A stretch of 43,823 nucleotides of DNA from Nemertoderma westbladi (GCA_032718475.1 JAUCBJ010003988.1:1-43823), one strand, 5' to 3'; shown: positions 480 through 34,508, counted from the first letter of the stretch. Translations and numbers: made by a program. Notes: generated by a model from the letters alone, not told the origin.

Positions 480-1467
480 CTGGAGGACAAAAAGCAATAA
501 ATCGCGTTAGTAGAACTAATTAAATATATCGGGGCTAGCAGGAACGACGTTTGGATGCGTGAGTCACTCATTATGGCACACGGGCACACGGACTGCGACA
601 CTGGATAATTGTAGCTGTTCATTTCAAGTACTAATTAGAATTTATCAAAAATGAAATGGTATTTAAAATTGAAACATTACTGAGAAACATTTATTTATCA
701 ACAACGTAAATACAAATACAAATTATTTTTAGTAGGAGCAGACTCATTCACTTTATCTTACAATTTTAAAATATTAGTAAGATAAAGTTCTATTAATATT
801 ATTTTGGAATTGATTACTGGATGGTTTACTGACATAAAAATTATATATAATCACAACTGCTGGAACTATTTATGAGATATTCAACAAACTTACTTCACTA
901 TATTTATACTTCGGGATCCCGGTGCAAAAAAGTCGGGATCGGGACCGGGATTGTATTTTTCGCCGGGATCCCGGATTTTCGGGATCGGGATCCCGTTTAA
1001 ACACTAAACATACAAGGTCGTAGCCGTGTAAGAAAGTATGTCGTGGTCATTCACTTAAACAAGTTAATGACCACACCATGGTCTCTAGGTTAAAGTGCTG
1101 AGGTCAATCTCGTCACTTTATCAATTCAATCGGATGTTAAAGTGGTTTCATACTCTAAATCGTCACCGCCAACATTATAAGCTGTTGGTTTGGCTTGTCT
1201 TGAAAGATTTAGTGGCAATAAAATACGTTCTGGTCATCAGTGAGCATTTCAAAAACAAGGAAACCTTTTACATCCACACAGTTTGCTCTAATAACATTTC
1301 TTTCCATACATCAAATCGCCCGCAAGAAAGTATGACAGCGGAATTTGCTGCACACCGACACTGACTATAGTGACAATACCATCTGGACATTCAAGGGCAA
1401 TAACTTGTTGAAACCAACATGAACTACGACATAGTACACGACACGTAGTGGTCATGGTTACACTAAC

Positions 1468-3263
1468 ATTGACTATCTCCTTGGAGTCTAAGAATCCCTG
1501 GTTCTCTCTCCAAGCCATCGTCATGGGCAACCATGGCGCCCCTCCAGACTCTACGGTGTCGCCAACCGGGGACTCTTCACCCGGATGGTAGAACTTACAA
1601 CCGGCGCGGTTGCAATCGTTAGCGTAACGACACGTCTTTACGCCGACGCGCACGGGCGCGGCTGCGACGGCAGTGGCTATCCGAGTCGTCTGCGAGCGCC
1701 AGAAGGGGAGCGTGGACGCGCAGGCGGCGTTCGCGTCGAGGAGGAACACGTCCGGGGGCGGCGGGGACGCGCGAACACGATGTTCCGTCGCCTTCGCGCA
1801 GCCGGCGCAGTGCCGCGTCGCGCCGGCGAGACTCCGGTTGACGACCGCGGCGAAGTCGACCAACACGGAGGCGTCCTCGGGGTAGTCGAGTCGGCACAAC
1901 TCCTCGGTCGCCTCAGCCCCGCAGTCGCCGCACGCCAGCGCGCCCTGCCGCGCGAGCAGCCGCGCGGTCAGCGCGCCCACAACGCCCTCGTCGTCCGGGA
2001 GACTCGGACCCAACTCCCGGAGCACCGTCGCCATGGCGCCTGGAAGGTCCACTGTTGCCATGGTAGCCGGGGGCCCCTGGAGAATCCCTACAAGCGACTG
2101 TACGAGGTCCTCAGAGTCCAGGAACTCCTTCTTTACCACGGAGAGGTTGTGGAACATCATGGAGAGAGCGCATAGGAAGCAACCACGCTGCTCGCAGTAA
2201 TGGCCGCGCACAGCGACCTCAAGCGGCTCAACGTAGAACAACGTCTGCAGAAGGCAGTTGTACGAGTTGCCGCTGGGGTTGTACATCCCAGCGAAGTTGG
2301 TCTTATTGTTGGTGTTAACGTCGAGTGCGAAACCTTCCGCCTCCACGATCTGGTAGTTCTTGTAGATATTAGGGGTAGTCGTGTAGTAGGCGAGCGGTTC
2401 TATCTTGGAAGTTTTCGTACGGACCGCGGGCTCTTTGCTCGGGACTGCTTGGCTACTAGCCGGTGGTTTGGCGTCGTCGTTCAGTTTATACGGGCATACG
2501 TTGCGTTTAATCTTCATAGAGTTGTGTCCACAGGCGATGAACCCTTTGTGGTTCCCGGACTGGGGTTCCATTATCTTCATTGACTCGATGAGCGAGGGGT
2601 CTATTGGCTCGGGGTTTCGGGGATGCGACTCGGTCATCCGGGGCGGCATGTCGCTGAACAGCGGCCCGTTGGGATGGGCCGGCATGGGGACCACCGAGTA
2701 GGGCGTGCGGACGTCGTCCACCCCGATGTACTGGTACTGGGGGGCGCGATCCGGGAACTCGGTGGGCCGCGCGAACGGGTTCATCTGGAAGTCGTGCCGG
2801 TCCGCTAGTAGATGGAGAACCCCGGCCGAGTCACCCACCCCCATGCACTGGTAGCCCTGGGAGACCTCGAGACTCGAGACGGTATCCGAGTGCGCCAACG
2901 TGGGGAGTTGGTTGACGACGCCGCCCCCGCCCAGAGCGAGGTCCACCATCTGGTAGTGGCCAGATTGCGCGACGGCCGTGACGCGCGTCCCACCGTGGTA
3001 CGGCCCTCCCCCAGGCTGCGACAACGCGAACCTTAGGAACGCTGGCTCAATGACCAACTGTACGGGATTCATCGCGTGTAAGTACCGTAAATCGTAGAGC
3101 ATAAGGTACCGGTCCGGGGTTAGGTGGCCCATACGATGACTCATTCCGCACGTGACTAACTGATGCCCGTGGATATTAACGTCGAAGTCGCTAAGCATAC
3201 CAGAATGCGCGTCTATTACATGTTGGGTGTCTAAACTATTAGGGTCCCTGAGGGTTATTTTAC
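1468..3263 (-). CDS. PAN2: PAN2 coding exon 4 (end of WD40 propeller, PAN3-binding linker, pseudo-USP domain)
   Basis: GKITLRDP..HSGMLSDFDV..CGMSHR..DRYLMLYDLR..GDSAGVLHL..NPFARPTEF..LFSDMP..NKTNFAG..LLQTLFYVEP..WLPM matches PAN2; acceptor tttgtag at 3264-3270; donor aat|gttagt is inferred and less certain. Confidence 0.9.
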
Positions 3264-3371: not shown

Positions 3372-3927
3372 CACTACTACTACTACTACGATCGGCATGC
3401 TGCATTGCAGCTGCATCATATATATATTACATATATAAGAATGCTGCACGTGCCGGATTGTCGACAAAATTGCCTGTCCACCATGCTTATTCGCTCCATG
3501 AGGGCGCCAAAGCACAAGATTATGCACTGGCTGGTCCTCACGGCGAAAGCAATGTCCTGCAAAGCGGAAGCGTTTCCATTCAAGTGTCAAGCTAGGGGAG
3601 ATTAATGGAACACCTCCAATGTTGTGATTGGAGACTGTACTTGACACAATGAACCCGGCGCAGCATTCTTGTGAAAGTGCCATCCAGAGTTTTGGTATCC
3701 TCTGCAGTTAGAGCCCTGCCCATGCCTCCCCCTACCGTATCCGAAGGTCTTCACCTGACTTTCAGATCCATGATAGCAAATAGCAGAAGTCATCCACGTG
3801 CTCAAGAAAGCCATCCTTAGACCTTATGCCCTTCGATCAGACATTTCTTGAGGGCTGTCTAGGTTGACTGTCATGATTTTGGTCTTCTTGGAATTTACAA
3901 AAAGACCAACACTAGAAGCAACCTGCT
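3372..3927 (-). mobile_element. Degraded 3' fragment of an RTE-type LINE with (TAG)n tail
   Basis: RFAGHCFRREDQPVHNLVLW..HGGQ and 3' end tgcagctgcaatgcagcatgccgatc(gta)n shared with the copies at 17975-19607 and 35545-36550. Confidence 0.85.
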
Positions 3928-5357
3928 GTATCTTAGAATCTATCTATACCTACCACCCGTGGTATCTCTACAGCAAATAGAAGTCCCACTGTATCTTAGG
4001 ATATATACCTAGCCGTGGTATCTCCACAGCAAATAGAAGTCCCACTATATCTTAGGATCTATACCTACCCGTGGTATCTCCACAGCAAATAGAAGTCCCA
4101 CTATATCTTAGGATCTATACCTACCCGTGGTATCTCCACAGCAAATAGAAGTCCCACTATATCTTAGGATCTATACCTAGCCGTGGTATCTCCACAGCAA
4201 ATAGAAGTCCCACTGTATCTTACCTTAGGACCTATACCTAGCCGTGGTATCTCTACAGCAAATAGAAGTCCCACTATATCTTAGGATCTATACCTACCCG
4301 TGGTATCTCCACAGCAAATAAAAGTCCCGCTGTATCTTACCTTAGGACCTATACCTAGCCGTGGTATCTCCACAGCAAATAGAAGTCCCACTGTATCTTA
4401 CCTTAGGACCGATACATAGCTGTGGTATCTCCACAGCAAATATAAGTCCCACTGTATCTTAGGATCTATACCTACCCGTGGTATCTCCACAGCAAATAGA
4501 AGTCCCACTATATCTTAGGATCTATACCTACCCGTGGTATCTCCACAGCAAATAGAAGTCCCACTATATCTTAGGATCTATACCTACCCGTGGTATCTCC
4601 ACAGCAAATAGAAGTCCCACTATATCTTAGGATCTATACCTAGTACCTACCCGTGGTATCTCCACAGCAAATAGAAGTCCCACTATATCTTAGGATCTAT
4701 AACTAGCCGTGGTATCTCCACAGCAAATAGAAGTCCCACTGTATATTAGGATCGATACCAACCCGTGGTATCTCCACAGCAAATAGAAGCCACACTGTAT
4801 ATTAGGATCGATACCAACCCGTGGTATCTCCACAGCAAATAGAAGCCACACTATATCTTAGGATCTATACCTACGCGTGGTATCTCCACAGCAAATAGAA
4901 GTCCCACTATATCTTAGGATCTATACCTAGCCGTGGTATCTCCACAGCAAATAGAAGTCCCACTATATCTTAGGATCTATACCTAGCCGTAGTATCTCCA
5001 CAGCAAATAGAAGTCCCACTATATCTTAGGATATATACCTAGCCGTAGTATCTCCACAGCAAATCGAAGTCCCACTATATCTTAGGATCTATACCTAGCC
5101 GTAGTATCTCCACAGCAAATAGAAGTCCCACTATATCTTAGGATATATACCTAGCCGTGGTATCTCCACAGCAAATAGAAGTCCCACTATATCTTAGGAT
5201 CTATACCTACACGTTGTATCTCCACAGCAAATAGAAGTCCCACTGTATCTTAGGATCTATACCTACCCGTGGTATCTCCGCAGCAAATATAAGTCCCACT
5301 ATATCTTAGGATCTATACCTACCCGTGGTATCTCCACAGCAAATAGAAGTCCCACTG
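3926..5357. repeat. 56-bp minisatellite (~25 copies) built from the PAN2 exon 3 end plus its 5' splice site
   Basis: Unit atcttaggatctatacctacccgtggtatctccacagcaaatagaagtcccactat; the last copy is the true exon/intron junction. Confidence 0.95.
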
Positions 5358-5632
5358 TGTCTAAGAATAGCGACCCCATTATCTCCAATATCAATAGCTC
5401 CCAGTTCTCGACCCGTTGCCAGGTCAACCTCGATCATGGTAGACTGGTGACCCCCTAATAACAAGGTGTTCCTTCGCGTTAGCATCATTGCCTGCATGTC
5501 CTCCATATTGGGACTGGTAAAGTCGAAGAGACGCACGCCGCCCCTGCCGCTACATCGCAGGTAGTTCTTCGTGAGAAATAATATCCCGCTGTCCAGAGTG
5601 AGAATCTGGCGGATATCGTTACAGTTATGGAT
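5323..5632 (-). CDS. PAN2: PAN2 coding exon 3 (WD40 region)
   Basis: IHNCNDIRQILTLDSGILFLTKNYLRCSGRGGVRLFDF..TLLLGGHQ..CCGDTTG matches DIRQIQSLENGILFLTKNNL..RGG..CGHTSG; acceptor ttatag, phase-1 donor G|gtaggt joins in frame to exon 4. Confidence 0.92.
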
Positions 5633-5921: not shown

Positions 5922-7387
5922 TAGGGTGGTTCAAAATTTTTTTTTTCGAATTTTCCATGTCTTACAAGCTAAAAGTATACCTTTGGGTTAAATATTGGTA
6001 ATTGGAAAGTTTAAATCGATTTGAAGGATGTCTAGAGGTGTCACATCACGCCTGAAGTTCCTATATTGGCATTGCATTTGGCGCGACTACCCTATATCTA
6101 CCATTTTTGTCATGACCAACTTCTGCTATGCCTATTTCAATGATGTAGTGCTCATTCGAACCGGAATTAGCGATTTAGTGGGGGTAGAAATGTTCAAAAC
6201 AAGAATAGAGTTATTCCTTCTTCAGATAATGTTCAGTAAGTATTGGATCATGGAATTCAAAATTGGTGCATCATTTCTCGATTTGTGTTTCAATAAAAAT
6301 CATACTTCCAATGACTTCACAGACTTGTGCTTAGCATCAATCGAACCACAATCATCGATTTAGTGGGTGTAGAAACCTTCAAAACATCAGTAGAGTAATT
6401 AGTTTTCATGAGGTTGCACAAAAGGTGCAGCTCGGCTCAACTCAACATTAGCGTATGGTTGCGATGTAGCATTGTCATAAAATGTTTGCTTCCAGTGACC
6501 TCACTGAGTAAAACATAGTTAAATTACCATGAATTACTGTATTATCATATACGCCTTACACATTATTGTTTAGAATGGTCTTGATTGAAGCTTACATTCA
6601 TTTATATGAACAGGGCACACCATACCATGGGCCTACCTACACTGTCATTTTACATAGGAGTAATATAAATGAACTGATGAATGTAAGCTTTAATCAAGAC
6701 CAATATTCTAAACAATAATAAGTATGGCAGTATGGCTTATGTGATAATACAGTAATTTATCGTAATCTAACTAGGTTTTATTCAGTGAGGTCACTGGAAG
6801 CACACATTTTATGACAATCCTACATCGCAACCATATGCTAATGTTGAGTTGAGCCGAGCTGCACCTTTTGTGCAAACTCATGAAAACTAATTACTCTACT
6901 GATGTTTTGAAGGTTTCTACACCCACTAAATCGATGATTGCGGTTCGATTGACTCTAAGCACAAGTCTGTAAAGTCATTCGTCATTGGAAGTATGATTTT
7001 TATTGAAACACAAATCGAGAAGCGACGCGCCAATTTTGAATTCCATGATCCAATACTTACCGTACATTATCTCGAGAAGGAATAACTCTATTCTTGTTTT
7101 GAACGTTTCTACCCCCACTAAATCGATAATTCCGGTTTGAATGAGCCCTACATCATTGAAATAGGCATAGCAGAAGTTGGTCATGACAAAAATGGTAGAT
7201 ATAGGGTAGTCGCGCCAAATGCGATGCCAATATAGGAACTTCAGGCGTGATGTGACACCTCTAGACATCCTTCAAATCTATTTAAACTTTCCAATTACTA
7301 ATATTTGCCCCAAATTCACATTTTTAGCCGGTAAGACATGGAAATTTCGAATGTTTAATTTTTTTAAGTTTAATTTGAACCACCCTA
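5922..7387. mobile_element. Non-autonomous hAT-type (hATm-like) foldback element with ~700-bp inverted arms in PAN2 intron 2
   Basis: Termini tagggtggttcaaa / tttgaaccacccta; perfect 8-bp TSD atatatag at 5914-5921 and 7388-7395; mirrored ORFs 6028+ and 7268- reflect the inverted arms. Confidence 0.9.
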
Positions 7388-7425
7388 ATATATAGTCAGT
7401 AGACAGTAATAATAACAATACATAC

Positions 7426-7542
7426 CTGAAACGATGTGTATTTCTGTAGATTGTGGCTGAAGTATGACGTTGTATGGCCAACCTGATTCCCTGACCATAT
7501 TAGCTCTTCAAATGCGTCAAACGCAACAGCACAGGAACCAAC
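7426..7542 (-). CDS. PAN2: PAN2 coding exon 2
   Basis: [39 protein letters not shown] matches FDLHEEMLWVGSHGGHATSFFGPALERYSSFQ; acceptor ttctcag, donor cag|gtatgt, 117 nt, phase 0/0. Confidence 0.92.
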
Positions 7543-8219
7543 CTGAGAAAGAAGTAACGATTTAAGTGAAATCGAAAAATAATCACCTATCACCCTATAC
7601 CCGCATATTATACAATTTTAAATGGATGACAGTGATGAGGAAGTTATTGAAACTGTCTCTACATTCATGTTGTCAGTTGTGGTGTGGCAACAAACTAACA
7701 GTTTTTCACGAGAGCATTGGATAATATTGTAATATTTTGAATTCCAAAACGCGCAGTTCTAGCCTACTGTTCTAACAGTCTAACGTGCAAATTACTGAAA
7801 AGCCTAACAAAACAACCCTAACTCAAATTTGAAAAATGTATTTAATAAGAAGCACGCCATCAAAATTTATAGGGATTTGCCAATAGATTACTGGATTAGG
7901 ATAGGCTATCTGCTGATATGATATGATCTGACCAAGAACAGTCTGACAGTGACAGGACAGTAGACAGGTAGCTGGATAGAAGAACCATTTTGTCTGTTTG
8001 TAAGAACTAACAGACCCCAAAACGCTAATAGCAGATCAGCTAAGAGTAAATAGGGGCCTACTGCTGTACCCACCGCATGTAAAATTACCAACTACTGGAA
8101 GTGAGATTGAGATTGTTTATTGCGCAATAGTCAAATATATGGTTATGGTTAATTATGACATAAACACCAATTAATTAAATATCATCCATAAATATATATC
8201 CATATATATTGCGATGTAC

Positions 8220-8581: not shown

Positions 8582-11359
8582 GTTGGTGTCTGGCTGTCTG
8601 GTCCTGTCTTGCAGTCTTGTATCCCTTCTGGCGTTCTTGTATTTATTTAAATTTTCGATAATTTTAATGTTTGATTATAATGGAGGCCTAATATTCAATA
8701 CTACAGTACTGGAATATGTCTAAATATAGCCTAGGCCTACGGCTGTACGGTCCGGTCGCGGTCAGACGGTACTGCAGATATTTAGGCCTACTGCTGTACA
8801 GCTGTACTGTTGACACTTGTACCAGGCAGCCAGGGCACAGGGTGTAGGTAGGCTTACTTGGCAGGTCAGCAAGTTGCTCGCCTGAAAGTTATAGAGCATC
8901 ATTGTCCAGCTAGTGCCTTGCCTACAGGCAGACAGGCCTCGGTGATCATCAGTGTTAAGCCTAATTCTGTAGTCTGGTAGTTACCGACCGGTGGCGGTGG
9001 TGCCTGCGATAGTCTGGCAGTCTGGTAGTGGTAGTGCAGTAGTGCATAGTCAGATAGTGCAGTACAGCAGTAGTGGTAGTCAAGTCAGAACCAGAAGTCA
9101 AGTAGCTCTGTCAGTCTGTAGTTAGGCAGTCAGGTCTTATTCTGGTCTCTGGGTCTGGCTATATAAGATAGACAGACATAGACTGATAGACCAGGCTGCC
9201 AGTAGTGCCAGGGATGGTTAAAACCTAATTTTTAAAAAAGCAAAATTAGGTGTTTTCCATAATTGAATAAAACCTTATAAAACCTATTAAAAATTTCATA
9301 CAAAAATTAAGAAATATTTCTATAACATTGCAGCATTGACATAATCTGATAATCTTAGAATCTGATAAATCTTAGGGCCTATAAAGTATCCACTTTGCGA
9401 CATTAGGCATACTGTACATACTCTAGTTTAGACCTATACTGTATTTATCTGTGTTTGACTTGTATCAATAAAACATCTCCAATATATCCAATGTGCAGTA
9501 TATTCCTGATGGGTCCCACTAGCTAGCAACTATTTCATAAACATGCTTTTTACATTCCGAGCACCTAAATTATCTACTTTCGAATCTATCGAGTAACACC
9601 CCCCCTCTCATCCTGATCAGTCAACTAAACCTTTCACAGTCATACACCAGTGAGTGGAAATCTATACTACTGTAGCTTTGCTACAGCTGACCACTGGCTG
9701 CACCCCAACACCCCACGGCTACGACATATTATCATTAGGCCTATCATATCACCCACATTCATGAATAAATACTGATCAACCTTAAACATTTTATGGTGAC
9801 CTTTGGTGTTGGGTTTTTTGCTTTTGCTATATAACGATATCGAAAGGTGAACTTCCGAAATTAAAGGCCCGAGCCTATCCCGGATTGAAATTGAAATTAA
9901 TTGCAGTTTTGAAGGTTCTAACACCCACTACACAGCACTAAATCAACCAATACGGTTTCATTGCGCCTATTCTCAAGCAGTCAAGTCTGTGAAGCAATTG
10001 CAAGCATGATTTATTGACTTCTATAATAAACTTCACCAAATGGCACCACTGACTGCATTATAACGACACCACAGTTTACATTCGATATCTCGTGTGGTTG
10101 ACAGGTTGATAATAGACGTGTGGCTATGTCTGTATGTAGGCAGGTAAGTAAATGAGTACAGTAGTTTACCTGTTTACAGAGGCGAGTTGGGGGAACCAAA
10201 ACAACAAACGAATGTTAAAACTTGTTACCTGATTATGAACACCATACTGCCATAGGCCTATAAAAGTGCTGGGGTGTCGTTATAATTGAACCTTTAGTTG
10301 AATACTGTATCCCCGTTTGGTGTCCCTTTTCTGAAGTACTCAATAGACCTGATAGAGAGCATACAGCGATATTTTACAGTCATTGGTGCGTGCTGTTGAT
10401 TTAATGAGGTACACAGTCCCCACATGGGCCAGGGCAGTTTTCGTTTGGGCACGAATGCTTTAAAGGGACCAGCCAGGGCGCATCTCTGCCTTGCATCCTT
10501 AAGTGGTAGCTAAATGAGTGTAGTTTCCTCTGGGGAGTGAAGTTCTGGGGGGACCGCACTGGAAATAAGTCGTCAGACTTTGTGCGTAATCCCTGGCCTA
10601 GCGGCCGAAGAAAATTTACTTTACTTTTACTTACAATGTTTAGTCGAACTATGTATTAGTTATGTATCTATTATTTGCAATAAATATATCAAAAACTATT
10701 TAATCATTTATATTTTTAGGTTAATATACAGTATAATGTTCCGATGCATTCAAATTAATTTTTGGTTTACTAATTAATTGTTTACATTGTCTGTTTTTTT
10801 TTCATATTAAGACATTTCATTTTTTTCATATTACATCCCCTAAATTGATCATTGCAGGTATGTGTAAATTGTGGATGCCTTGAGATAATTACAAGTATCA
10901 TTTTTAGTGTATTTTACAATATCGCATCAAGGCGCTGCGGCGTTTGCACAATAAGTGGCCAAATGCAAGGTTAAAAAAAAAATTTTCGCCAACCCTCTCA
11001 AATCTTACATATTTCGAAAGCCCTTAGCGTGCTGATTTCAAATTTCATAGTGGTTCATTTTTTCTACCAATAGTAAAAAAGTTATGGACGAAAAACTTTT
11101 GTCTTGTGGTTAACGCTTTGTCTCATATAAATCTTTCGGAAAAATCTTTCTTTTTTATCTTTCGGAAAATACTTACCTTGTAACAAACACATTTCACAAT
11201 AAAAAGTTATGTTTCAAAAACGAGTGTTACAACACCTAAAAAATTAAAAAAAACGAACATGTAGCATTTCTCATTCCTCAAAAAACAAAACTATAAAGAA
11301 GTGTAACGCAGTAACAACTAGTACTGGATTGTAGATCATGAAATAAGCTTTTAGTGATA

Positions 11360-12352: not shown

Positions 12353-13475
12353 ATATATAGTTTACTGGAAGTATCTCTTACTGACATTTGGTTATGATCT
12401 TGTGTGATTTGGATAACTTTATAGAAGTAAATGTGACTGATATAGATAGATAGATTTATTTGTACATTATGTAAAAAACAATAACAAATACACCAAACAA
12501 TAATGTACCGGTATAAAGGTATTGTCCAACATAAAATATAGGATTACCCCTAAAGCTTTGCAGCTTATTTCCAAGGGGGTCCTTTATGTTACTGGGTTAC
12601 TAATACAATATTACACTACGCTAATCTAAAACCAATATAAAACGTAATTACATTATGTACATGTACAACTTTACCGAGAGCGTGACAATGTCCGACTCAA
12701 CGTATGTAAAGATGTAATGTACAGAACAATTTATTATAAAACGTAATTACAGTATAAATAGTAAATAATTAATAAACTAATAACTTACTGTAGGACTATT
12801 GTACCTAAGTAGTAGGGTCTTGGGCGGCTCTGCGACAGTTAGACCCAACTGACACCCATTGGGTGTCATATGACACCCAATTATCACCCTATGGGTGTCA
12901 TTGGGTGTCATTGGCGCCAGACTGTCTGGGTGACAACTCCTAATTAGGCTAATTAGACCCTAATTGACAGGTGTCATCAATTAATTAGTACAAATAAACC
13001 CTAACAGGTGTCATATGACTCCTAATTAGGGTTTAATTGATTATCCTAATTAATCAGACTGATTAGCGCCCTGACACACAATGGGTCATCAGTGTTGTCT
13101 AACTGTCGCAGAGCCGGCTCAAGAGGGTGTCATAAGTGACACCGCAGCTCTTTTATTCTTTAATACTTATTTATATTTAATTTTAATTAATTAATTGTAT
13201 TCTATTTTACTTTATTTATTCATTTGTACTTTATTTAATTTTAATTAATTGTATTACTTTTACTTTATACATTGATTTCTATTTTTAGATAAATTAGTTT
13301 TTATATTACCAATGAGATCACTATGACATAATGTCTATATTTAGCTCTATGGTTTATAGATCCCTTATCGTTAACTTTATAATCTTTCCTCTCGCGGCCC
13401 CTTTGTCTTCGTTATTCAATGGCGCCACTCTGGCTACCATTGAATAACATTGGGCAATCATTATCTCGCCTGATG

Positions 13476-13600
13476 TGACGTCATCAAAGCTGCTCTCTGA
13501 TTGGTTTAATTATACAGTCTTTTCTCCCTCCTGTTCCCTGATTGGCTAACCCATTCTAGCCCCCTCTATAATAACCCCCGTTCAACGCATTCCCAGTCAT
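13476..13600 (+). promoter_or_regulatory. Putative Pol II promoter of the element ORF
   Basis: CRE tgacgtca 13476-13483, inverted CCAAT boxes (attgg) at 13500 and 13541, TATA tataataa at 13567, cagt initiator at 13594 (27 nt after TATA), ATG at 13715. Confidence 0.6.
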
Positions 13601-13714
13601 TATCTAAGTTTTATATTAAAAAGTTTTATTTATTTTCATAAAAGTTTAATTTATTTAAAATTTTGTAAAATCATTTAGCTAAAATTCAATATTATCAATT
13701 GACATTGCTATATA

Positions 13715-14767
13715 ATGCATAGACATGAAAGTTGTTTGGTTTGTAATAAAGAAATGAGACAAGACAATTTATCTCGTCATATGGAAACACATAGAAAGGA
13801 AAAACTAATGGCTCCATTACCAAAAAAATTTAAAAAATCCGAAGATATTTTTAGTAAAGATGAAAAGAAAAAGAGAGATGAGCGTAATATATTAAATATA
13901 AAACAGACAATGGAAAGTAAATTTCATAAAGTTATGAATATTTTGAAAGGGATACAAAAACAGTTACCCCTAGAAAATGAGGAAAATTTGAGTGAGAAAG
14001 ATGGAGAAGAAGAGGATGATGAGATGGAGAATGAAAATAGTGAGGGTCAGGATGAAGTTGAAGAGAGTGAAGTTGAGAACGAAGAAAGTGAAGATCAGGA
14101 AGAGGATGAAGAAAGTGAAGGTCAAGAAGAGGGTGAAGATAGCGAAGGTCAGGAAGAGAATGAAGAAAGTGAAGAACAGGAAGAGGATGAAGAAAGTGAA
14201 GAACAGGAAGAGGATGACGAAAGTGAAGGCGGGGAAGAGGATGAAGAAAGTGAAGGTCAGAATGAGGGTGAAGAAAGTGAAGATCAGGAAAGTGGAGAAG
14301 AGGATGAAAATGATGATAATGAGGAAATAAAGAGGCAATTACTTGGAAATAAGAATCAATTGCGGAAAATTATTAAACATTTGAAGGAAAATGAAGAAAA
14401 TAAAGAGGCGACATTGACCCAAGTCCTAGGAAGTAAAATTAAATTACAGAAATTTATTAAACATTTAGAAGAGAATGATGAAAATAAAGAAGAGATATTG
14501 AGACAAATATTAGGAAACAAAAATCAAATGCGGAAATTTATTAAACAAATGGAAGAAAATGAGGAAAATAGAGAAGAGATATTAAGACAGGTTCTGGGAA
14601 ATAAAAGTAAATTACTGAAAATTAATGAACAATTGAATAAAATTAAGAAACAGTTGGGTAATGAGGAAGATGAAAGTAAAGTAAATCAACCAGCTTTTAC
14701 TAATTTTCGAAGACCTATGATAAAAAACTCTCGTTCAGTAAATGCCCGCGCAGGACGACGCTATTGA
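13715..14767 (+). CDS. 350-aa element-encoded protein: N-terminal C2H2-like zinc finger, basic NLS-like patch, acidic 10-aa repeats, ~29-aa helical repeats
   Basis: Uninterrupted ORF; CLVC-x11-HMETH; PLPKKFKK; (EESEGQEEDE)-like repeats; EEIxRQxLGNKxxLxKxIKxLxENxENK about 4 times. Confidence 0.75.
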   Translation: MHRHESCLVCNKEMRQDNLSRHMETHRKEKLMAPLPKKFKKSEDIFSKDEKKKRDERNILNIKQTMESKFHKVMNILKGIQKQLPLENEENLSEKDGEEEDDEMENENSEGQDEVEESEVENEESEDQEEDEESEGQEEGEDSEGQEENEESEEQEEDEESEEQEEDDESEGGEEDEESEGQNEGEESEDQESGEEDENDDNEEIKRQLLGNKNQLRKIIKHLKENEENKEATLTQVLGSKIKLQKFIKHLEENDENKEEILRQILGNKNQMRKFIKQMEENEENREEILRQVLGNKSKLLKINEQLNKIKKQLGNEEDESKVNQPAFTNFRRPMIKNSRSVNARAGRRY

Positions 14768-14799
14768 CATTTGTTTGTTTGAATTCCTTTCATAATAGT

Positions 14800-14960
14800 A
14801 GGGCTATTTATCCAAAACAATTATATTAGTATTAGGACTATTTATCCATAACAATTATATTAGTATTAGGACTATTTATCCATAATAATTATATTAGTAT
14901 TATAAATGTATTTACCCCACAATATTTATTACTATTAGGTCTATTTATTCAAGAAATTAT
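14800..14960. repeat. ~35-bp AT-rich tandem repeat downstream of the ORF
   Basis: ggactatttatccataacaattatattagtatta x3 plus degenerate copies. Confidence 0.8.
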
Positions 14961-15183
14961 ATGTTTTTATAATATACTTTGGAAAATTGGTCGACTAAGT
15001 CATAATTTTTAAAACTTTAAATAAGGGTTGAGTTATTTTATAAAGTTAAGAAGAATGAACCAATAGAGGCAACCTGAAGTCTAATCTCTTGGCCTTTACT
15101 CACATTAACTCCCAAGGTTGCATACTATCACTATAGCTGGGAGAGTCAAAGCTAGTGTATACTACAGTTAGCCGAGAGCTAGG

Positions 15184-15285
15184 AAAAAGAATAATGCTCT
15201 TCTAGGGTTCGAACTCACGACCTTCTAATTCGAAAACTAAGCAAATGATCAGCTTGAAGGCCTTAGACCCTTAATCGGAGGCATC
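15184..15285 (-). ncRNA. tRNA-like / Pol III-type unit pointing away from the palindrome array
   Basis: Minus strand reads ..gggtctaaggc (D-arm/A-box-like) ..agaaggtcgtgagttcgaaccc (T-arm/B-box) ..ttttt terminator; no clean cloverleaf. Confidence 0.4.
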
Positions 15286-15336
15286 GAGCAGCCAATGAGA
15301 GAGCAGATGCGAGTACAGTGGTAAGGCCCATCCATG

Positions 15337-16598
15337 GTGAGGCATAGTCTATGCCTCAGTGGGGCATAGTCTATGCCTCAGTGAGTCATAGTCTATGCCT
15401 CAGTGCCTCAGTGAGGCATAGTCTATGCCTCAGTGAGGCATAGTCTATGCCTCAGTGCCTCAGTAAGGCATAGTCTATGCCTCAGTGAGGCATAGTCTAT
15501 CCCTCAGTGAGTCATAGTCTATGCCTCAGTGAGTCATAGTCTATGCCTCAGTGAGGCATAGTCTATGCCTCAGTGCCTCAGTGAGGCATAGTCTATGCCT
15601 CAGTGAGGCATAGCCTATGCCTCAGTGAGTCATAGTCAATGCCTCAGTGAGGCATAGTCTATACCTCAGTGAGTCATAGTCTATGCCTCAGTGAGGCATA
15701 GTCTATGCCTCAGTGCCTCAGTAAGGCATAGTCTATGCCTCAGTGAGGCATAGTCTATCCCTCAGTGAGTCATAGTCTATGCCTCAGTGCCTCAGTGAGG
15801 CATAGTCTATGCCTCAGTGAGGCATAGCCTATGCCTCAGTGAGTCATAGTCTATGCCTCAGTGAGGCATAGTCTATGCCTCAGTGAGTCATAGTCTATGC
15901 CTCAGTGAGGCATAGTCTATGCCTCAGTGCCTCAGTGAGGCATAGTCTATGCCTCAGTGAGGCATAGTCTATGCCTCAGTGCCTCAGTGAGGCATAGTCT
16001 ATGCCTCAGTGAGGCATAGTCTATGCCTCAGTGCCTCAGTAAGGCATAGTCTATGCCTCAGTGAGGCATAGTCTATCCCTCAGTGAGTCATAGTCTATGC
16101 CTCAGTGAGTCATAGTCTATGCGTCAGTGAGGCATAGTCTATGCCTCAGTGCCTCAGTGAGGCATAGTCTATGCCTCAGTGCCTCAGTGAGGCATAGTCT
16201 ATGCCTCAGTGAGTCATAGTCAATGCCTCAGTGAGGCATAGTCTATCCCTCAGTGAGTCATAGTCTATGCCTCAGTGCCTCAGTGAGGCATATTCTATGC
16301 CTCAGTGAGGCATAGCCTATGCCTCAGTGAGTCATAGTCTATGCCTCAGTGAGGCATAGTCTATGCCTCAGTGAGTCATAGTCTATGCCTCAGTGAGGCA
16401 TAGTCTATGCCTCAGTGAGTCATAGTCTATGCCTCAGTGAGGCATAGTCTATGCCTCAGTGAGGCCTAGTCTATGCCTCAGTGAGTCATAGTCTATGCCT
16501 CAGTGAGGCATAGTCTATGCCTCAGTGCCTCAGTGAGTCATAGTCTATGCCTCAGTGAGGCATAGTCTATGCCTCAGTGTCTCAGTGAGGCATAGTCT
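15337..16598. repeat. Tandem array of a 22-bp palindromic unit g-tgaggcatag-t-ctatgcctca (>50 units, with 8-bp gtgcctca partial duplications)
   Basis: Directly visible; the 10-bp arms are exact reverse complements. Confidence 0.97.
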
Positions 16599-16661
16599 GT
16601 GTCAGGTCTTAAATGAGAGTCTTACAAATTCGAACGTCAACGAACAAATTCGAAGGTTACT

Positions 16662-16744
16662 GTTCCACCTTGGTGTAGTGGTTGCGTTGAATTCACATCT
16701 CCCGTATGTCATGGGTTCGATCCCCGCATGAACCAGTCAGTTTT
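16662..16744 (+). ncRNA. tRNA-like / Pol III-type small RNA unit
   Basis: A-box tggtgtagtgg 16671-16681, B-box ggttcgatccc 16714-16724, tttt at 16741-16744; tRNA-like spacing but no clear anticodon arm. Confidence 0.55.
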
Positions 16745-16819
16745 CGTTTGGTTAGCAATAGGGCTAACGTTGCAAAATGCAGTATTATTGCCTAGTAACC
16801 AATTCATGGCTATCGTATG

Positions 16820-17250
16820 GTTTTCACTTTAAGACATTTCGCCCTCTAGCAGCAGACTGGGGAACTTCAGACTACTCTGTGACTCCGCAAAAGATATAGC
16901 CTATGCCGTAGTAGATGCCGATTGGGGGGTCAAATTAAGTAATAATATATCTAAATAAGCCTCAAACATCTTGCCTCATGGCTCGCCCCTTAGAACCCTT
17001 AAGCAATATAACTTCATAGTTTTGCGGATTGTAAATAACAAAGCTAGAGAAGATGTTAATTTTTAAATAATACGCCCTCTAGCGGTAGACAGGGGAACTT
17101 CATACTACTCTATGGCTCCGCAAAAGATATGGCCTAAGCCGTAGTAGATGCCTACCGAGTTTAAACCCATTCGGAATGAAAATAGCAAAGTTAGAGAAGA
17201 TGTTAATTTCAGATCATACGCCCTCTAGCGGCAGACTATGGAACTGCAGA
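16820..17250. repeat. Three dispersed direct repeats (cgccctctagcggcagactggggaacttcaga..) with CTCF-like core
   Basis: Copies at ~16840, ~17073, ~17219; reverse complement related to 43529-43577. Confidence 0.75.
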
Positions 17251-17974
17251 CGGCTGGATATAGGTAAGAGTAATTAGTAATCAGAGCTGTCACGGGGTGG
17301 GGGGCGGGGCGCTTGGATACAAATATTATTAATAAGCTGTTGCTTGGTTAAAGCTAATTGGGGTCAAAGGTCAAAGGTCAACGATAAAGCTGTCTGGAGT
17401 AATTAGTTACCAGTAAGGGAGCTGTATACCCTATGTCTAAGTATAACGAGATGAAAGTCCATGAGGTCATATAGAAACCAATATATAAAACTAATTATTG
17501 GTAAATCTAAAATAAAGTACAATTAATTAATTAAAATTAAATATAAATAAATAGGTATTAATTAATAAAAGAGCTGCGGTGTCACTTATGACACCCTCTT
17601 GAGCCGGCTCTGCGACAGTTAGACAACACTGATGACCCATTGTGTGTCAGGGCGCTAATCAATCTGATTAATTAGGATAATCAATTAAACCCTAATTAGG
17701 AGACATATGACACCTGTTAGGGTTTAATTGTGCTAATTAATTGATGACACCTGTCAATTAGGGTCTAATTAGCCTAATTGGGAGGTGTCACCCAGACAGT
17801 CTGGCGCCAATGACACCCAATGACACCCATAGGGTGATAATTGGGTGTCATATGACACCCAATGGGTGTCAGTGTGGTCTAACTGTCGCAGAGCCGCCCA
17901 AGACCCTACTACTTACCTATTTTTACATTGCACACGGAGGTGAGATTTAACTGCAGATTTAAAAGAATGTTGAA

Positions 17975-19607
17975 TGTCTGAGTCAGTACTCCCAGATATT
18001 CCCATTGGCGATATCTTCTTTGCAGAAGTGAAGGCTGCTGCAAAGAGCATTAAGACCAATCGTGCCAGTGGAGTAGATGGTGTTCCCCCTGAGGTCTTTA
18101 AAATACCTGAGTGTTCAAAGCTCATCTATCCCATCATAGTAGACATGTACCGAACATCAAGAGTCCACAAGAAATGAAAACAAATAAGTTGGTACCAGTT
18201 CCCAAGAAGGGCAACCTAACACTCTATGCTTCTTTTCGGGGAATCTCATTGATCTCGATTGCTGCAAAGCTATACAATAGAATTCCATTAAATCGCATCA
18301 AGGATCCCATTGAGAGACTGCTCCGTGGAAATCAGAATGGGTTCCGTAAAGGTCGTGGGACCATGGAGCCCATTTTGGCACTGAAGAATAATTGAAGAGT
18401 TATCAAAAAAGAAAGACAGGCATCTCTGGAAGTTATCTTTGTTGACTTCTTCAAGAAGGCCTTTGATTCAGTCTCTCGCTCACGTATGTTCAGCATTCTT
18501 TCTTTATATGGGATTCCTGATGAAATTATTGCAGCAATCAGATCAGTATACGATGGTTCGACAACATTTGTGTCTACTGTTGATGGTGACACAGAACCAT
18601 TTGAAGTGTTATGGGGCGTCCTCCAGGGAGACACACTTGCACCATTCTTGTTCATAGTTGTGGTTGCCTATGTTCTACGCATGTCCTTAGATCATCATAA
18701 TGATGATGGGGTGATGATAACTCCACCTACTGACTCCAGAAGTCGAGGAAATCCTGCCAAGTACCTAACTGATCTAGACTTTGCTGATGACTTAGGAGTA
18801 CTCTCAGAATCACTAGAGGGAGCCCAACGGTTTCTCAGCTCATTAGAACATGCTGCTTCTAGTGTTGGTCTGTCTTTTTAATAACTCCAGAAAGACCAAA
18901 ATTTTGACAGTTAACTTTGAAAGTCCTCAGCAAGTCTCTGATCGGATGAGCATAAGCTCAAAGGATGGTATGCTTGAGCATGTGGACGACTTCTGTTACC
19001 TGGGATCATGGATCCGGAAGTCAGGTGAGGACCTTCGAATACGTAAGGGAAAGGCATGGGCAGCCTTGAATAGGCTTTCTAGAATTTGGAAGTCACCGAG
19101 AATTAATCGAAAACTTAAGGTCCGATTATTTAGAGCAGCAGTAGTTCCAGTACTCCTCTATGGGAGTCCATGCTTGGCTCTAACTGCTGAGGACACCAAA
19201 TCTCTGGATTGCACATTCACAAGAATGCTACGCCGGGTTCATTGTGTCAAGTACAATGCACACATCTCCAACCAGACACTATATAACATTGGAGGTGTCT
19301 CATTGGTTCCCCCAAGCTTGACACTAGAACAAAATCGCCTCCGCTTTGCAGGACATTGCTTTCGCCGTGTGGACCAGCCAGTGCATAATCTTGTACTTTG
19401 GCAGCCTCATGGAGTGAATAAGCATGGTGGACAGCCCATGACTTTCTTGAGACACATCTTAAAGGACACTGGCCTTGAAGATGCGGATGATCTAGCAAAT
19501 GTCATGGGTGATAGGGAGTTGTGGTGGTGCGATTTTGTTTTGTTGACAAGCCGGCACAGCATTCTTAAAAATACAGCTGCAATGCAGCATGCCGATCCTA
19601 GTAGTAG
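17975..19607 (+). mobile_element. 5'-truncated, frameshifted RTE-type non-LTR retrotransposon (RT pseudogene)
   Basis: RASGVDGVPPE, VPVPKKGNL..RGISL, QNGFRKGR, GVLQGDTLAPFLF, DLDFADD, FCYLGSWI, RLRFAGHCFR; stops and frameshifts; (tag)3 tail. Confidence 0.92.
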
Positions 19608-21995: not shown

Positions 21996-22486
21996 TGTAG
22001 ACTTGTGCCGGACTTCACATTTTCTGCAATATCTCAAGAACTATTCGCTCTACGTTTGTTTTGAAGTTGTCTACCCCCACTAAATCGGACATTGCGGTTC
22101 TAATGAGCATAATATGAATACAGTAGGAGAACTCAAAGTTGGCCATCGCGAAAGTTTTGAATTATCATCACTTGTGCCAAATGGTAGGTTCTGGTCATGT
22201 GCCTGTGGCACTAGTTCCCTTGATCCAAAAATTAAAATTTTGGTATCTAGCAAAGTTTGGACCCATTTGATGACATTTGATGCATGTAGGAAGTTCTTTC
22301 TTGAGTCATTGATCTTTCAATAATGTGTTATATTGCTATAAATTTAATTATGGCGCATCGCAATGGCTCAAAATTTCAACCCTCTTGGGATCCGTGAAGA
22401 TTGCCTTATTTTTTTACCATTTGGCAACTTTTGTGCACCGGTAGAACAATGAAATCGAAAAAAAAGAAAAAACGCACCGCCCTATT

Positions 22487-23152
22487 GTGCAAGTGTGTCT
22501 CCCTGGATGACGCCCCATAACACTTCAAATGGTTCTGTGTCACCGTCAACAGTAGACAGAAATGTTGTCAAACCATCGTATACTGATCTGATTGCTGCAA
22601 TAATTTCATCAGGAATCCCATATAATCAAAATATGCTGAACATACGTGAGCGAGAGACTAAATCAAAGGCCTTGAAGAAGTCAACAAAGATAATAGCCAG
22701 ATGCCTGTCTTTCTTTTTTGATAACTCTTCAATTATTCTTCAGTGCCAAAAGGGGCTCCATGGTCCCACGACCTTTACGGAACCCAATCTGATTTCCACG
22801 GAGCAGTCTCTCAATGGGATCCCTGATGCGATTTAATAGAATCCTATTGTATAGCTTTGCAGCAATCGAGATCAATGAGATTCCCCGAAAAGGACCATAG
22901 AGTGTTAGGTTGCCTTTCTTGGGAACTGGCACCAACTTATTTATTTTCATTTCATGTGGGGCTCTTGTTGTACGGTACATGTCTACTATGATGGGATAGA
23001 TGATCTTTAAACACTCAGGTATTTTAAAGACCTCAGGGGGAACTCCATCTACTCCACTGGCACGATTGGTCTTAATGCTCTTTGCAGCAGCTTTCACTTC
23101 TGCAAAGGAGATATCGCCAATGGGAATATCTGGGAGTATAGACTCAGACACT
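22487..23152 (-). mobile_element. RTE-type LINE internal fragment, inverted copy of ~17975-18642
   Basis: SESILPDIPIGD..RASGVDGVPPE..VPVPKKGNL..GFRKGRGTMEP near-identical to the plus-strand copy. Confidence 0.9.
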
Positions 23153-24584
23153 TTTACTTCTATAAAGTTATCCAAATCACACAAGATCATAACCAAATGT
23201 CAGTAAGAGTAAAATGTCATTTTTTTTTCAAAAAATGAAAAATGCCGATATCTCGAAAACCAATCGACAGAAAATTATAAAAATACTATTTTTGGGTTTT
23301 TCTTGACCCGACTTTTACTTTTGAATAACACTTGGACATGGTGATTGAATTTTATCAGGCTCATAATTTTGAATAGTGCCGGTTTTAAAAAAAAAAATGA
23401 AAAATTCCGATATCTCGAAAACCAAACTACAGAATATTTTCAAAATAACATTTTTGGGTTTATCTTTTTATCTTTATCTTTTTATCTTGACCTAGTGAAT
23501 AACCATGCAAAACATGGTCCATGTTGATTTTCCAAAGTGGATTTTCAATTTTGGCACGGGGTGCTTGAAGAAGTCAACAAAGTGAATAGCCAGATGTCGG
23601 TCTTTCTTTATTGATAACTCTTCAATCATCCTTCTACTGTAAGTGCCAAAGTACCACATATGTAGGGGAGACGAGGGAGATTTGGCACGTTAGTGCTACT
23701 TAAATTTTATTATAATCATTATCATAAACATTAGTCAATTCGCATTAGCCTCAACTTTTTTTTAAATCGAATCCGATTCGTTACTAACTAACGAACTAAA
23801 TTCGTTATTCTATGCTACGAATTTAATAAGAATCCAGTTGAACATGAACACTCCCCACATAACACACCCAGCCTACGGTAAACAGTAACGGAAAGGAACA
23901 TCAACGGCCTGGGGGATTCCTTGAATTACGCAAAAAATAAACCCTGAAGTTAAACTTGTAAACTTGGAGAAGATTAACATAATAAAGTAAATGGTGCTTG
24001 TCTGCTGATAGTTACTGCATAAATATTGCAAATTAGGCTGTAAATGTATGTAGAACATGGTGTTTAAATTAGGATGCCAAATATCCCTGTTCTCTCTGCC
24101 AAATGTCCTCACGTGTTGGGAGAATCGGCACGTTTGACCTCCGTCTACAAAATCGATCCTAGCGTTTCGAAATCTATTTACAATCAATACAAACTATGAT
24201 TGAAAGATAGCCCATTCAAATCTGAACAAAATGAGAACTCGTATTAAAGAAATGAGTAAACAGATTGGAAGATATTAGCGTATTAGACAAAAACATGCCA
24301 AAATTTTAAATTCAGGTGAGAGAGAGTCGTAAGGGTTGATCCATGAGGAGGGGTGAATCAGAGCCTACATGCTGTTTTGCTATGAATGAAAGTATACTTT
24401 TGCCACCTGTTTTCTAGAACTGATACGACTGTTTAGGAAACCTCCCATTTATTGATTTGACAATTCACCAATAAATATGATGCTTTTCTGGTTGAGAAAT
24501 TATTCAGTTTCCAATTTCGGTATGGATGATTACGTCACTAGTTGGCACTTTTCGTACACAAGCAATTTTAAAAAAAATGGAGTA

Positions 24585-32028: not shown

Positions 32029-32808
32029 ATGAATACTGATGGTTTCACTGTTGTTAGGCGAAGATTCTCTAACCGTAAACGCGTCTTGGTAAATCACCGC
32101 GGTTCTGGTAACTCTACTGCATCTCAAGCGGACATCGAATACACTGACCCTGTCAGTTTAATATCGACAATCACTCGATATAAACAGGAACTCAGTAGTT
32201 CAGAATACCTCAGAAATTTAAACTCGATTCTTATAGATACAGTCGCTCAACTTATTGTCGGACTTGGCATTGGCCGTCTTGACTGCCCAACTGCAAAATA
32301 TCACCTAGCGTTACTACTAGCAATTAGAGATCGCTTTCCTGGAGTTGAATGTCGAGTTTACGATCCTATTTGGTCGCACTACGACGCACAGGCATTGGCC
32401 GGGTTGAGATTTACTGTCCTAACAGTAAATCCCGCGGGTAAGTACACCGCCACCGTACCTACTCTGTATTTTATGCCGCACTGCGGCAAACCGTTATATA
32501 ATAATCTGCTGTGGAGTAATTGGACTACAGAAAAACTCACACTTTGCACAGTAATTGGCAATAGTTTTTCCGGAATGATTAATAGATCGCCGATCAAAGA
32601 AGTTGAGGAATTACATTTTATTTTAGAAACTACAAAATTTGCCTTGGAATACCCAATACCGAACTCGTTTCGTTTTAGCGATATATTCAACGATCTATCC
32701 TTGCATAAATTCCCCATAAATCAGGTTAATCACGTTATGGACAGTTTGAAACATATGGTTCTAATCAATCCAACATACTTACATTGTAAAGATGAAATTA
32801 TTTCGTAA
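32029..32808 (+). CDS. SRRD: SRR1-like protein, single ORF
   Basis: DGFTVVRRR, GLGIG, YHLALLL, VYDP, TLYFMPHCGKPLYNNLLWSNW, IGNSF, DIFNDLSLH are SRR1-domain motifs. Confidence 0.92.
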   Translation: MNTDGFTVVRRRFSNRKRVLVNHRGSGNSTASQADIEYTDPVSLISTITRYKQELSSSEYLRNLNSILIDTVAQLIVGLGIGRLDCPTAKYHLALLLAIRDRFPGVECRVYDPIWSHYDAQALAGLRFTVLTVNPAGKYTATVPTLYFMPHCGKPLYNNLLWSNWTTEKLTLCTVIGNSFSGMINRSPIKEVEELHFILETTKFALEYPIPNSFRFSDIFNDLSLHKFPINQVNHVMDSLKHMVLINPTYLHCKDEIIS

Positions 32809-33614: not shown

Positions 33615-34508
33615 ATGCGACCTTTGATCCATTACCTACTGGCGTTCCGACCGTACTCGTTCGGTGCCAGCGCCACTCCCGTATTCCTGGGGGCGGCTCT
33701 GGCAACCCACTTCGTTACCGTGAGCCCGGCCATCCTCCTGCTAACAATCGCCTCCGTATTATCCGTCCACGGCGCGGGTAACCTGGTTAACACCTACTAC
33801 GACTATATGCGAGGAGTAGACACCAGTGAGCGGGACTGCGACAGAACCTTAGTCGACGACAAACTCACCCCGAACGACGTCGCTTCTCTCAGTTCGCTTT
33901 CCTATTCCCTCGGGTGTTTAACTTTCTTCGCGGCCGCCTCGCTATCTTCAGCTCCCATCGAACTCATTGCTTGTCTGTTCTTCGGGGGCCTCAGTGGCTC
34001 TTTCATATACACGGGGGGTATCGGTCTCAAATACACTGCCTTGGGGGACCTTGCTGCAATCACCCTATTCGGACCCACAGCTGTAACCTACTCCTTCGTG
34101 TTACAAACCGGTCGTTTCTCCTTCACTCCTCTTATATTCGCTATCCCGTTGTCATTGAACACCGAGTCGGTACTCCACGCGAAGAATATCCGTCGTATGG
34201 ATTCGGACACGCGTGTTGGCATTGTGAACTTAGCTATTATCCTCGGGAAGCCACTCTCGTGCGTTCTATACGCTGTACTATTGTTGTCGCCCTACGTGGG
34301 TTTATTTTATTTAACTCTAAACTATTCAGTCTATTTCGCGTTGCCTATAGTTACAATTCCTGTCGCGTTTCGGTTGGAAAAATTGTTGCGGGTCGGGAAT
34401 TTCGATAAGTTTATGTCGGCGATGTTGAATTGCGTTTTTGGTTTCTTATACGTTATAAGTGTATTAGGTTGTAAAAAAAATAATTTGCCGCTGATACAAT
34501 ACTTGTAA
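33615..34508 (+). CDS. UBIAD1: UbiA prenyltransferase domain-containing protein 1 homolog (heix-like)
   Basis: RPYSFGAS, VHGAGNLVNTYYDY..GVD..DRTLVD, FFGGLSGSFIYTGGIGLKY.ALGDL, PLSLNTE, GIVNLAIILG; first ATG at 33615; an upstream exon cannot be excluded. Confidence 0.93.
   Translation: MRPLIHYLLAFRPYSFGASATPVFLGAALATHFVTVSPAILLLTIASVLSVHGAGNLVNTYYDYMRGVDTSERDCDRTLVDDKLTPNDVASLSSLSYSLGCLTFFAAASLSSAPIELIACLFFGGLSGSFIYTGGIGLKYTALGDLAAITLFGPTAVTYSFVLQTGRFSFTPLIFAIPLSLNTESVLHAKNIRRMDSDTRVGIVNLAIILGKPLSCVLYAVLLLSPYVGLFYLTLNYSVYFALPIVTIPVAFRLEKLLRVGNFDKFMSAMLNCVFGFLYVISVLGCKKNNLPLIQYL

Follow-up and report, generated by a model that had tools for sequence, protein, structure and literature searches.

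A likely non-autonomous, core-less Polinton family member with an ordered interior in the genome of Nemertoderma westbladi

How does a unit with the ends of a Polinton and none of its core genes come to lie in an animal genome, and what is to be made of its interior? This question is raised by positions 12808-17913 of contig JAUCBJ010003988.1 from Nemertoderma westbladi (assembly GCA_032718475.1), all 43,823 nucleotides of which (positions 1-43823) were analyzed and are referred to here as the window. The 5,106 bp Polinton-type element starts with AGTAGT and ends with ACTACT. An earlier interpretation of the window, hereafter the original prediction, described it as a cargo-only unit that is moved in trans by a helper Polinton and carries a small regulatory module. 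We read the element as belonging to a core-less Polinton family of a few dozen copies that would be mobilized by a helper and encode a single protein, for which binding to the palindrome array of the same element is predicted, and we give this reading as a whole a probability of roughly 0.55.

The element is bounded by terminal inverted repeats (TIRs) of about 405 bp each (left, plus strand, 12808-13209; right, minus strand, 17508-17913), which are 96.1% identical across 408 aligned columns, and it is flanked by a perfect 6 bp target site duplication (TSD), TACCTA, at 12802-12807 and 17914-17919. All of the end features named in the original prediction are therefore present. The first 350 bp of the TIRs contain eight differences and, if both copies were identical at insertion, this would correspond to about 1% change per copy and to an integrated element that is fairly young though not brand new, as had been proposed. 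Intact vertebrate Mavericks are 12.7-24.6 kb long with TIRs of 402 ± 276 bp and 6 bp TSDs, and (AGT)2//(ACT)2 is their most frequent end motif, with (AG)3//(CT)3 also occurring (PMC8097293). Ends, TIR size and TSD of the element agree with this signature while size and gene content disagree. Each TIR additionally contains an inner inverted repeat of about 53 bp (85-89%; 12818-13124 and 17597-17903) as well as nine GACACC and seven TAATTA sub-repeats, far above the window background and candidate sites for host factors.

To characterize the insertion and its copy number, contigs of four of the nine public runs listed (X1, X3, X4 and X5) were compared with each half of the element. One X5 contig (2,734 nt), treated as a single record because its depth was 8.12 in both half-comparisons, spans 12442-12807 and 17914-17973 with an overlap of six letters, and by eye a loose end found at 12807 in X4 reads as window 17920-17949. 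Together these identify TACCTA as a true target duplication. The check for an uninterrupted site thus returned a single TACCTA in contigs of the target repeat, which are possibly paralogues. The Polinton-type element is the youngest of three nested insertions (12375-17975), in which a long interspersed nuclear element (LINE)-like sequence bearing a reverse transcriptase received a second repeat with a microsatellite tail, which in turn received the element. The LINE-like sequence is intact at 22484-23209, while here the second repeat divides it into 12375-12440 and 17975 onward.

Similar outer features might belong to a non-autonomous element from some unrelated cut-and-paste superfamily whose 6 bp duplications are coincidental. 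Long TIRs are found in several superfamilies, and by gene the element is tied to Polintons through a 25-residue zinc finger only. However, (AGT)2//(ACT)2 together with a 6 bp TSD is the commonest Maverick signature (PMC8097293) and the same finger type is present in polinton-like contigs, and we regard this explanation as extremely improbable.

None of the frames within the element could hold a DNA polymerase B of the protein-primed type (pPolB), integrase, ATPase, protease, major or minor capsid protein or superfamily 1 (SF1) helicase. Stop-to-stop frames of at least 60 amino acids (aa) comprise only the open reading frame (ORF) at 13715-14767, frames overlapping it and three frames of 62-71 aa. 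A tblastn search with 14 distant proteins from polinton-like and virophage contigs, integrase not being among the queries, matched only the zinc finger of the ORF, and a polymerase-like ORF from the metagenome locus L015 likewise matched the element at the finger alone. In case of the retroviral-like integrase, no frame able to hold one was found, and decayed remnants were not searched for with an integrase query. Frame survey and tblastn thus agree with the predicted absence of pPolB, integrase, ATPase, protease and capsid genes. The element shares (AGT)2//(ACT)2 ends, TIRs of about 400 bp and a 6 bp TSD with autonomous Mavericks and Polintons (PMC8097293, PMC3014272, PMC6431247), but with a size of 5.1 kb compared with 12.7-24.6 kb and without any of these core genes it lies outside that group.

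In X3, contigs of the interior one letter off the window sequence reached a depth of 1040 (13340-13505) and 1070 (14264-14483), and sparse places in the right half summed to 1443-1630. Relative to ten diverged single pieces with a median depth of 36, this amounts to a ratio of 29-45-fold for both halves. Further, depth was present in 30 of 30 bins of each half in X1, X3 and X4. These values suggest about 30-45 copies with both interior halves present, where contig depth is not identical to copy number and the single-copy depth was itself inferred, without a single-copy gene as reference. A multicopy interior, named in the original prediction as a supporting sign, is suggested by this result, with no contig spanning the array. 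TIR depth was about 59 per end compared with 29-45 for the interior, a weak hint that other elements bear these ends. A small number of contigs depart from the interior (at 15101, 15227, 15289 and 17404-17431) or match only part of the TIR (17699-17813) before continuing otherwise, and related elements with different interiors may therefore exist.

Based on what is known of the family, a full-size helper Polinton would provide the missing functions: its protein-primed polymerase would initiate at the (AGT)2 ends, and the 6 bp duplication would be the product of its integrase. That 30-45 copies containing both interior halves were moved in this way by the polymerase and integrase of a helper is, taken jointly, what we consider probable. 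The proposal of a non-autonomous unit moved in trans gains from the Polinton-type ends and TSD, the missing core, the true duplication and the multicopy interior, while its part concerning paired RNA polymerase III (Pol III) units is weakened as described below. Overall, the element is likely a non-autonomous member of a Polinton family.

Depth can also be explained if a longer Polinton collapsed after insertion, with the core genes once located between two array copies, in which case the depth observed would represent the end regions of long elements. The 1.26 kb array is beyond the reach of the contigs, and equal depth on either side would fit long elements too. The left array edge, which served as positive control, was not among the 24 of 787 loose ends listed, and additional edges could thus have been missed. 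The single or few contigs leaving the interior at the positions given above would fit as well, and erosion affects 96% of the Maverick loci of vertebrates (PMC8097293). Against such a collapse, tblastn with the 14 distant proteins found no remnant of pPolB, capsid or ATPase and matched the finger alone, no well-supported break was present in either half among the loose ends listed, and Mavericks are mostly low-copy with a median of 8 (PMC8097293). We therefore judge a collapse to be distinctly unlikely and retain the core-less family as our preferred interpretation.

Non-autonomous Polintons were reportedly already known to the founding Polinton papers, and we take the "N1" in the name Polinton-1N1_DR to mean non-autonomous. 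That name occurs in PMC9341505, and mobile polintons lacking polB are described for Pieris butterflies (bioRxiv 2025.02.07.637071). Like both of these, our element is bounded by TIRs, lacks a polymerase and has apparently multiplied. The Pieris elements, however, contain canonical polinton proteins and transposable element cargo, whereas no core gene is present here and the interior is an ordered arrangement of an orphan ORF, an array and insulator-like motifs. Transpovirons (PMC5499653), relatives of Polintons that are also small (ca. 7 kb), linear, TIR-bounded and without a capsid, rely on another virus and likewise carry a gene for a zinc-binding protein. They differ in encoding an SF1 helicase and a dead polymerase domain and in riding on giant viruses, while our element has no helicase, shows integrase-type insertion marks and resides in an animal genome. 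The excerpt of bioRxiv 2024.01.15.575659 describes Polinton remnants only. The literature searched, in which most subscription journals and Repbase reports were not represented, contained no paper on a core-less Polinton that has an array of this kind, Pol III boxes or CTCF sites. Non-autonomous Polintons are thus known, and what sets this element apart from those compared here is the core-less form with an ordered ORF, array and insulator-like interior.

The interior starts with a candidate RNA polymerase II (Pol II)-type promoter (plus strand, 13440-13600), which was recognized by motif matches to what we take to be CCAAT boxes at 13449, 13500 and 13541, a perfect cyclic AMP response element (CRE) palindrome at 13476 and a TATA-like box at 13567. 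The X3 contig with a depth of 1040 overlaps this region and is nearly identical to it, and a putative promoter thus lies where it had been predicted, ahead of the ORF. The ORF (plus strand, 13715-14767) is the only long frame and is open over 350 codons, in agreement with the intact zinc finger and acidic frame originally described. Its protein would consist of a C2H2 finger (residues 7-26) followed by a basic stretch, a helix (48-83), an acidic repeat tract with 73 D/E within 117 aa, a second helix (199-323) and a basic tail. Residues 199-323 form 28-aa repeats with a hydrophobic period of 3.5 residues and were modeled as one confident helix by AlphaFold2 without alignment (predicted template modeling score, pTM, 0.25). 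Repeats of 9/27 bp and 84 bp make up most of the ORF, and its stop codon is followed by a 34 bp tandem repeat (plus strand, 14793-14962, 4.8 copies). The three ORF length variants listed, of 3, 24 and 69 bp, are each in frame. X5 is perhaps RNA, which is a guess, and since non-coding parts are covered too this run has no bearing on expression.

Beyond the finger, the ORF resembled nothing in the collections searched. It matched no Pfam family at the cut-off and no PHROG, no homologue was found among 7,989 candidates with only finger-level matches among 25 representatives, all Atlas matches were below 0.9 with no related viral locus, and the structure model gave no Foldseek match at E 0.001. 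The finger of the ORF belongs to a distinct type that is common to nine short proteins among the 25 matches. An alignment of this finger retrieved 24 metagenome loci, for which 41 of the 155 listed frames were compared with Pfam. Eighteen finger ORFs from 17 loci were examined, leaving out L004, L007, L011, L012, L014, L020 and L023, and 12 of the 18 contain a P-loop without a Pfam name. Hallmarks of the Polinton supergroup were seen in three of the 24 loci. L019 (1-7320), a polinton-like contig, encodes a double jelly-roll capsid (E 1.8e-10) and an A32 ATPase (E 3.2e-5), and its finger heads a P-loop ORF. L021 contains virophage capsids, and fingers head two of its ORFs (6445-7544). In L015 (322-4113) the finger is part of a 1,264-aa ORF with an endonuclease VII insert that resembles a protein-primed polymerase, and residues 400-1264 of this ORF gave a score of 0.98 against clusters whose members carry DNA_pol_B_2 in 19-47% of cases. 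The finger match, 25 residues long, thus suggests a link of the ORF to the Polinton supergroup.

Downstream of the ORF, the palindrome array (15337-16600) was confirmed with 52 full 22 bp palindromic units, GTGAG(G/T)CATAGTCTATGCCTCA, and 13 spacers of 8 bp. No further copy of the unit exists in the window. At position 6, 35 of the 52 units have G and 17 have T, while every other position departs in at most five units. Over both strands, the array contains 112 GAG(G/T) sites, and it contains 17 TGAGTCA sites compared with 7 in the remaining window. Rfam microRNA matches in the array were far under the gathering scores and reflect the palindromes. The helix of the ORF finger carries R, D, N and R at positions -1, +2, +3 and +6. 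A finger with the helix RSDNLTR came out of selection on GAG with G as the next base (PMC1920264, Table 1), and an Asp at +2 makes contact with A or C of the opposite strand (PMC7293014), which would place G or T after the triplet. The GAG(G/T) site predicted from the helix is identical to the two main unit variants of the array and occurs once per strand in each unit, and on these grounds the finger is predicted to bind the array. The R-D-N-R finger would then read GAG(G/T) twice, in inverted orientation, in every unit, with the long heptad helix pairing two fingers and the acidic tract keeping nucleosomes off. The array could become a protein-coated platform that possibly recruits helper proteins with the same finger type. 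Coating of the array by the ORF protein via paired fingers is, as a prediction, rather tentative.

On either side of the array lies a Pol III-like unit, and both were evaluated with patterns that we presume to represent A- and B-boxes. The plus unit (plus strand, 16662-16752) has an A-box at 16671-16681 and a B-box at 16714-16724, and it is the only one of the seven B-box cores in the window with an A-box upstream. The minus unit (minus strand, 15184-15290) has a B-box (core 15214) and a T run but no canonical A-box, no depth spike and no significant fold. Folding of the two units was no better than that of shuffles (z -0.09 and +0.26), ARAGORN did not call either of them a tRNA from the default down to -ps90, and Rfam returned no match at the gathering score. 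The 34 tRNAs that ARAGORN called over the whole window at -ps85 are noise. Further, the two units are unlike each other (alignment score 26). Of the paired Pol III units described originally, the plus unit with its A- and B-box thus stands while a matched, folded pair does not.

In case of the plus unit, depth points to a host origin. X4 depth at 16659-16711 was 12,143, whereas the bins at 16606 and 16765 had 32-42. Out of varied flanks, six X4 contigs join at 16662, and one X5 contig exits at 16730, its continuation agreeing by eye with window 10427-10456 at 29 of 30 positions. The depth spike, a 32 bp match (E 0.002) and this loose end tie the plus unit to a short interspersed nuclear element (SINE), while aligning the plus unit over its full length with the SINE-like repeat at 10250-10650 gave a score of 46, below the null maximum of 51. 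We infer that the plus unit derives from a high-copy host SINE, of which it is the head, cut shortly after the B-box and common to the copies of the family. The join is bridged by contigs containing the pieces 16652-16867 (X4) and 16670-16996 (X5). In the SINE-like repeat itself (10330-10620), the body continues the plus-unit sequence and the repeat's own head is diverged.

If the Pol III-like units were active, they might make small RNAs that blunt host defence, similar to adenovirus VA RNA or the EBER RNAs of Epstein-Barr virus (EBV), with the array serving as a shared upstream enhancer. The units on both sides face away from the array, each has a B-box followed by a T run 26 bp later, and TGAGTCA sites are more numerous in the array than in the remaining window. 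Neither unit, however, folds beyond its shuffles, the two differ in sequence, the T run of the plus unit lies inside the parent SINE whose body runs on beyond it, and the minus unit combines the missing A-box with an internal T4. This makes small RNAs a highly improbable explanation. By layout alone, the interior resembles the EBER-oriP region of EBV (PMC3705264), where a repeat array likewise lies beside Pol III-type units and CTCF sites and a candidate DNA-binding protein is self-encoded. There is no homology, and in contrast to EBV the CTCF sites of the element lie on one side only and its Pol III-like units are without structure.

Three CTCF-like sites (minus strand, 16822-17253; sites at 16840-16870, 17073-17103 and 17219-17249) follow the plus unit. 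All three consist of a core, a 5 bp linker and an upstream motif, the surrounding repeats being 80-85% alike, and none of 300 Markov-null sequences contained such sites compared with three observed. In vertebrates, CTCF core plus 5 bp plus upstream motif defines insulator-type sites (PMC12885311). By motif, the three are accordingly predicted to be of this type, with the reservation that a vertebrate motif may not suit the CTCF of this host. Over 50 bp, the first copy shares 90% identity with a different host repeat at 43528-43577, depth spikes over this first copy, and a loose end at 17253 in 14 X1 contigs matches the continuation of that repeat at 28 of 30 positions by eye. The host repeat itself (43260-43760) contains a complete extended CTCF-like site at 43529-43559 as well as another core at ca. 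43400. Taken together, this suggests that 43260-43760 belongs to a high-copy family, from which the CTCF-like site was likely taken and then triplicated. The CTCF-like repeats of the original prediction are thus present and, by motif, of insulator type, while their unit is not specific to the element. The B-boxes flanking the array and the three CTCF-like sites may represent host-repeat pieces trimmed to the motif that would act as DNA boundaries and not as RNA genes, a role we regard as possible yet doubtful.

The host-derived parts also feed the main rival explanation for the interior, according to which the ends do all the work, helper movement resembles that of miniature inverted-repeat transposable elements, and everything between is neutral baggage: a swollen leftover of an accessory gene, a minisatellite and scraps of host repeats. 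The SINE head, the CTCF unit shared with another host repeat and the lack of folding beyond shuffles are all in line with this. The ORF has no full-length homologue, its 19 listed substitutions carry no selection signal, and most of it consists of 9/27 bp and 84 bp repeats in which slippage would stay in frame anyway. On the other hand, 350 codons remain open behind an ordered promoter, and the SINE piece retains both boxes and stops soon after. In addition, all three CTCF-like copies keep both motifs at the 5 bp spacing within repeats that are 80-85% alike, and the order of parts is bridged by the contigs of other samples described for the plus unit. We consider neutral baggage unlikely on balance, and keep the predicted functional interior as part of the preferred reading. 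Its most ambitious version would be a Polinton parasite with a self-made, oriP-like control module. The GAG-reading finger of polinton-type polymerases and P-loop proteins would have been retained with the enzyme replaced by an acidic coiled coil, the site of this finger would have been multiplied to 52 palindromes that capture or out-compete the replication proteins of the helper, and TFIIIC and CTCF insulator parts from host repeats would serve as a fence. This version is speculative and, in our estimate, improbable.

Several observations weigh against our reading. No contig of the runs used spans the array, none of the 24 of 1,359 and 24 of 787 loose ends listed revealed a further insertion site flanked by a TSD of its own, and TIR patterns gave 0 matches in viral and metagenome contigs, so that no helper was seen there. 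The insertion target is a high-copy repeat, and its uninterrupted contigs may represent paralogues and not the empty allele. For the finger, the match covers 25 residues, and 21 of the 24 loci are without hallmark context, being mostly short contigs. The finger profile scored 26.8 bits compared with at most 17.6 for generic fingers, a circular test since the loci had been retrieved with the motif itself. GAG(G/T) occurs in 20.6% of random palindromic units, and R-D-N-R, present in 12 of 18 relatives, is what this finger type carries by default, which means that no co-evolution of finger and array is shown. The T variant of the unit also yields what we take to be an AP-1-type site, and a single mutation may be its origin. 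Among the 40 of 269 variant records listed, 19 are ORF substitutions, of which five are silent and none is a stop, with 16% and 6% expected at random, and these show no clear sign of selection. Lastly, the excerpt of PMC12885311 reports that the CTCF upstream motif is not enriched in Drosophila.

Elsewhere in the window, an intronless 636-aa PAN2-like frame (PAN2_N, UCH_1; minus strand, 1288-3198) has a GC content of 55-60% compared with about 38% in the remaining window and is possibly of foreign origin or a retrocopy. Single-frame genes include an SRR1-like (32029-32808), a UBIAD1-like (33615-34508) and an M60-peptidase-like gene (39308-41179). The UBIAD1-like protein is 46-53% identical to its animal relatives among the 120 matches listed, and this divergence suggests an isolated lineage. 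A 56 bp tandem array of 24.7 copies is found at 3926-5368, and a 1.4 kb fold-back element at 5945-7351 is 88% self-complementary.

In conclusion, a multicopy 5 kb core-less family, if true, would mean that ends alone suffice for mobilization in trans, and it would delimit the cis signals of Polintons, whose replication and integration are apparently without direct demonstration in the literature surveyed. If the interior is baggage, the element would be an ordinary non-autonomous Polinton. If the finger binds the array, a finger type known from polinton-type polymerases and P-loop proteins would have its first concrete target. The trimmed SINE head together with the triplicated CTCF-like sites would represent the uptake of host insulator parts by a virus-like element.

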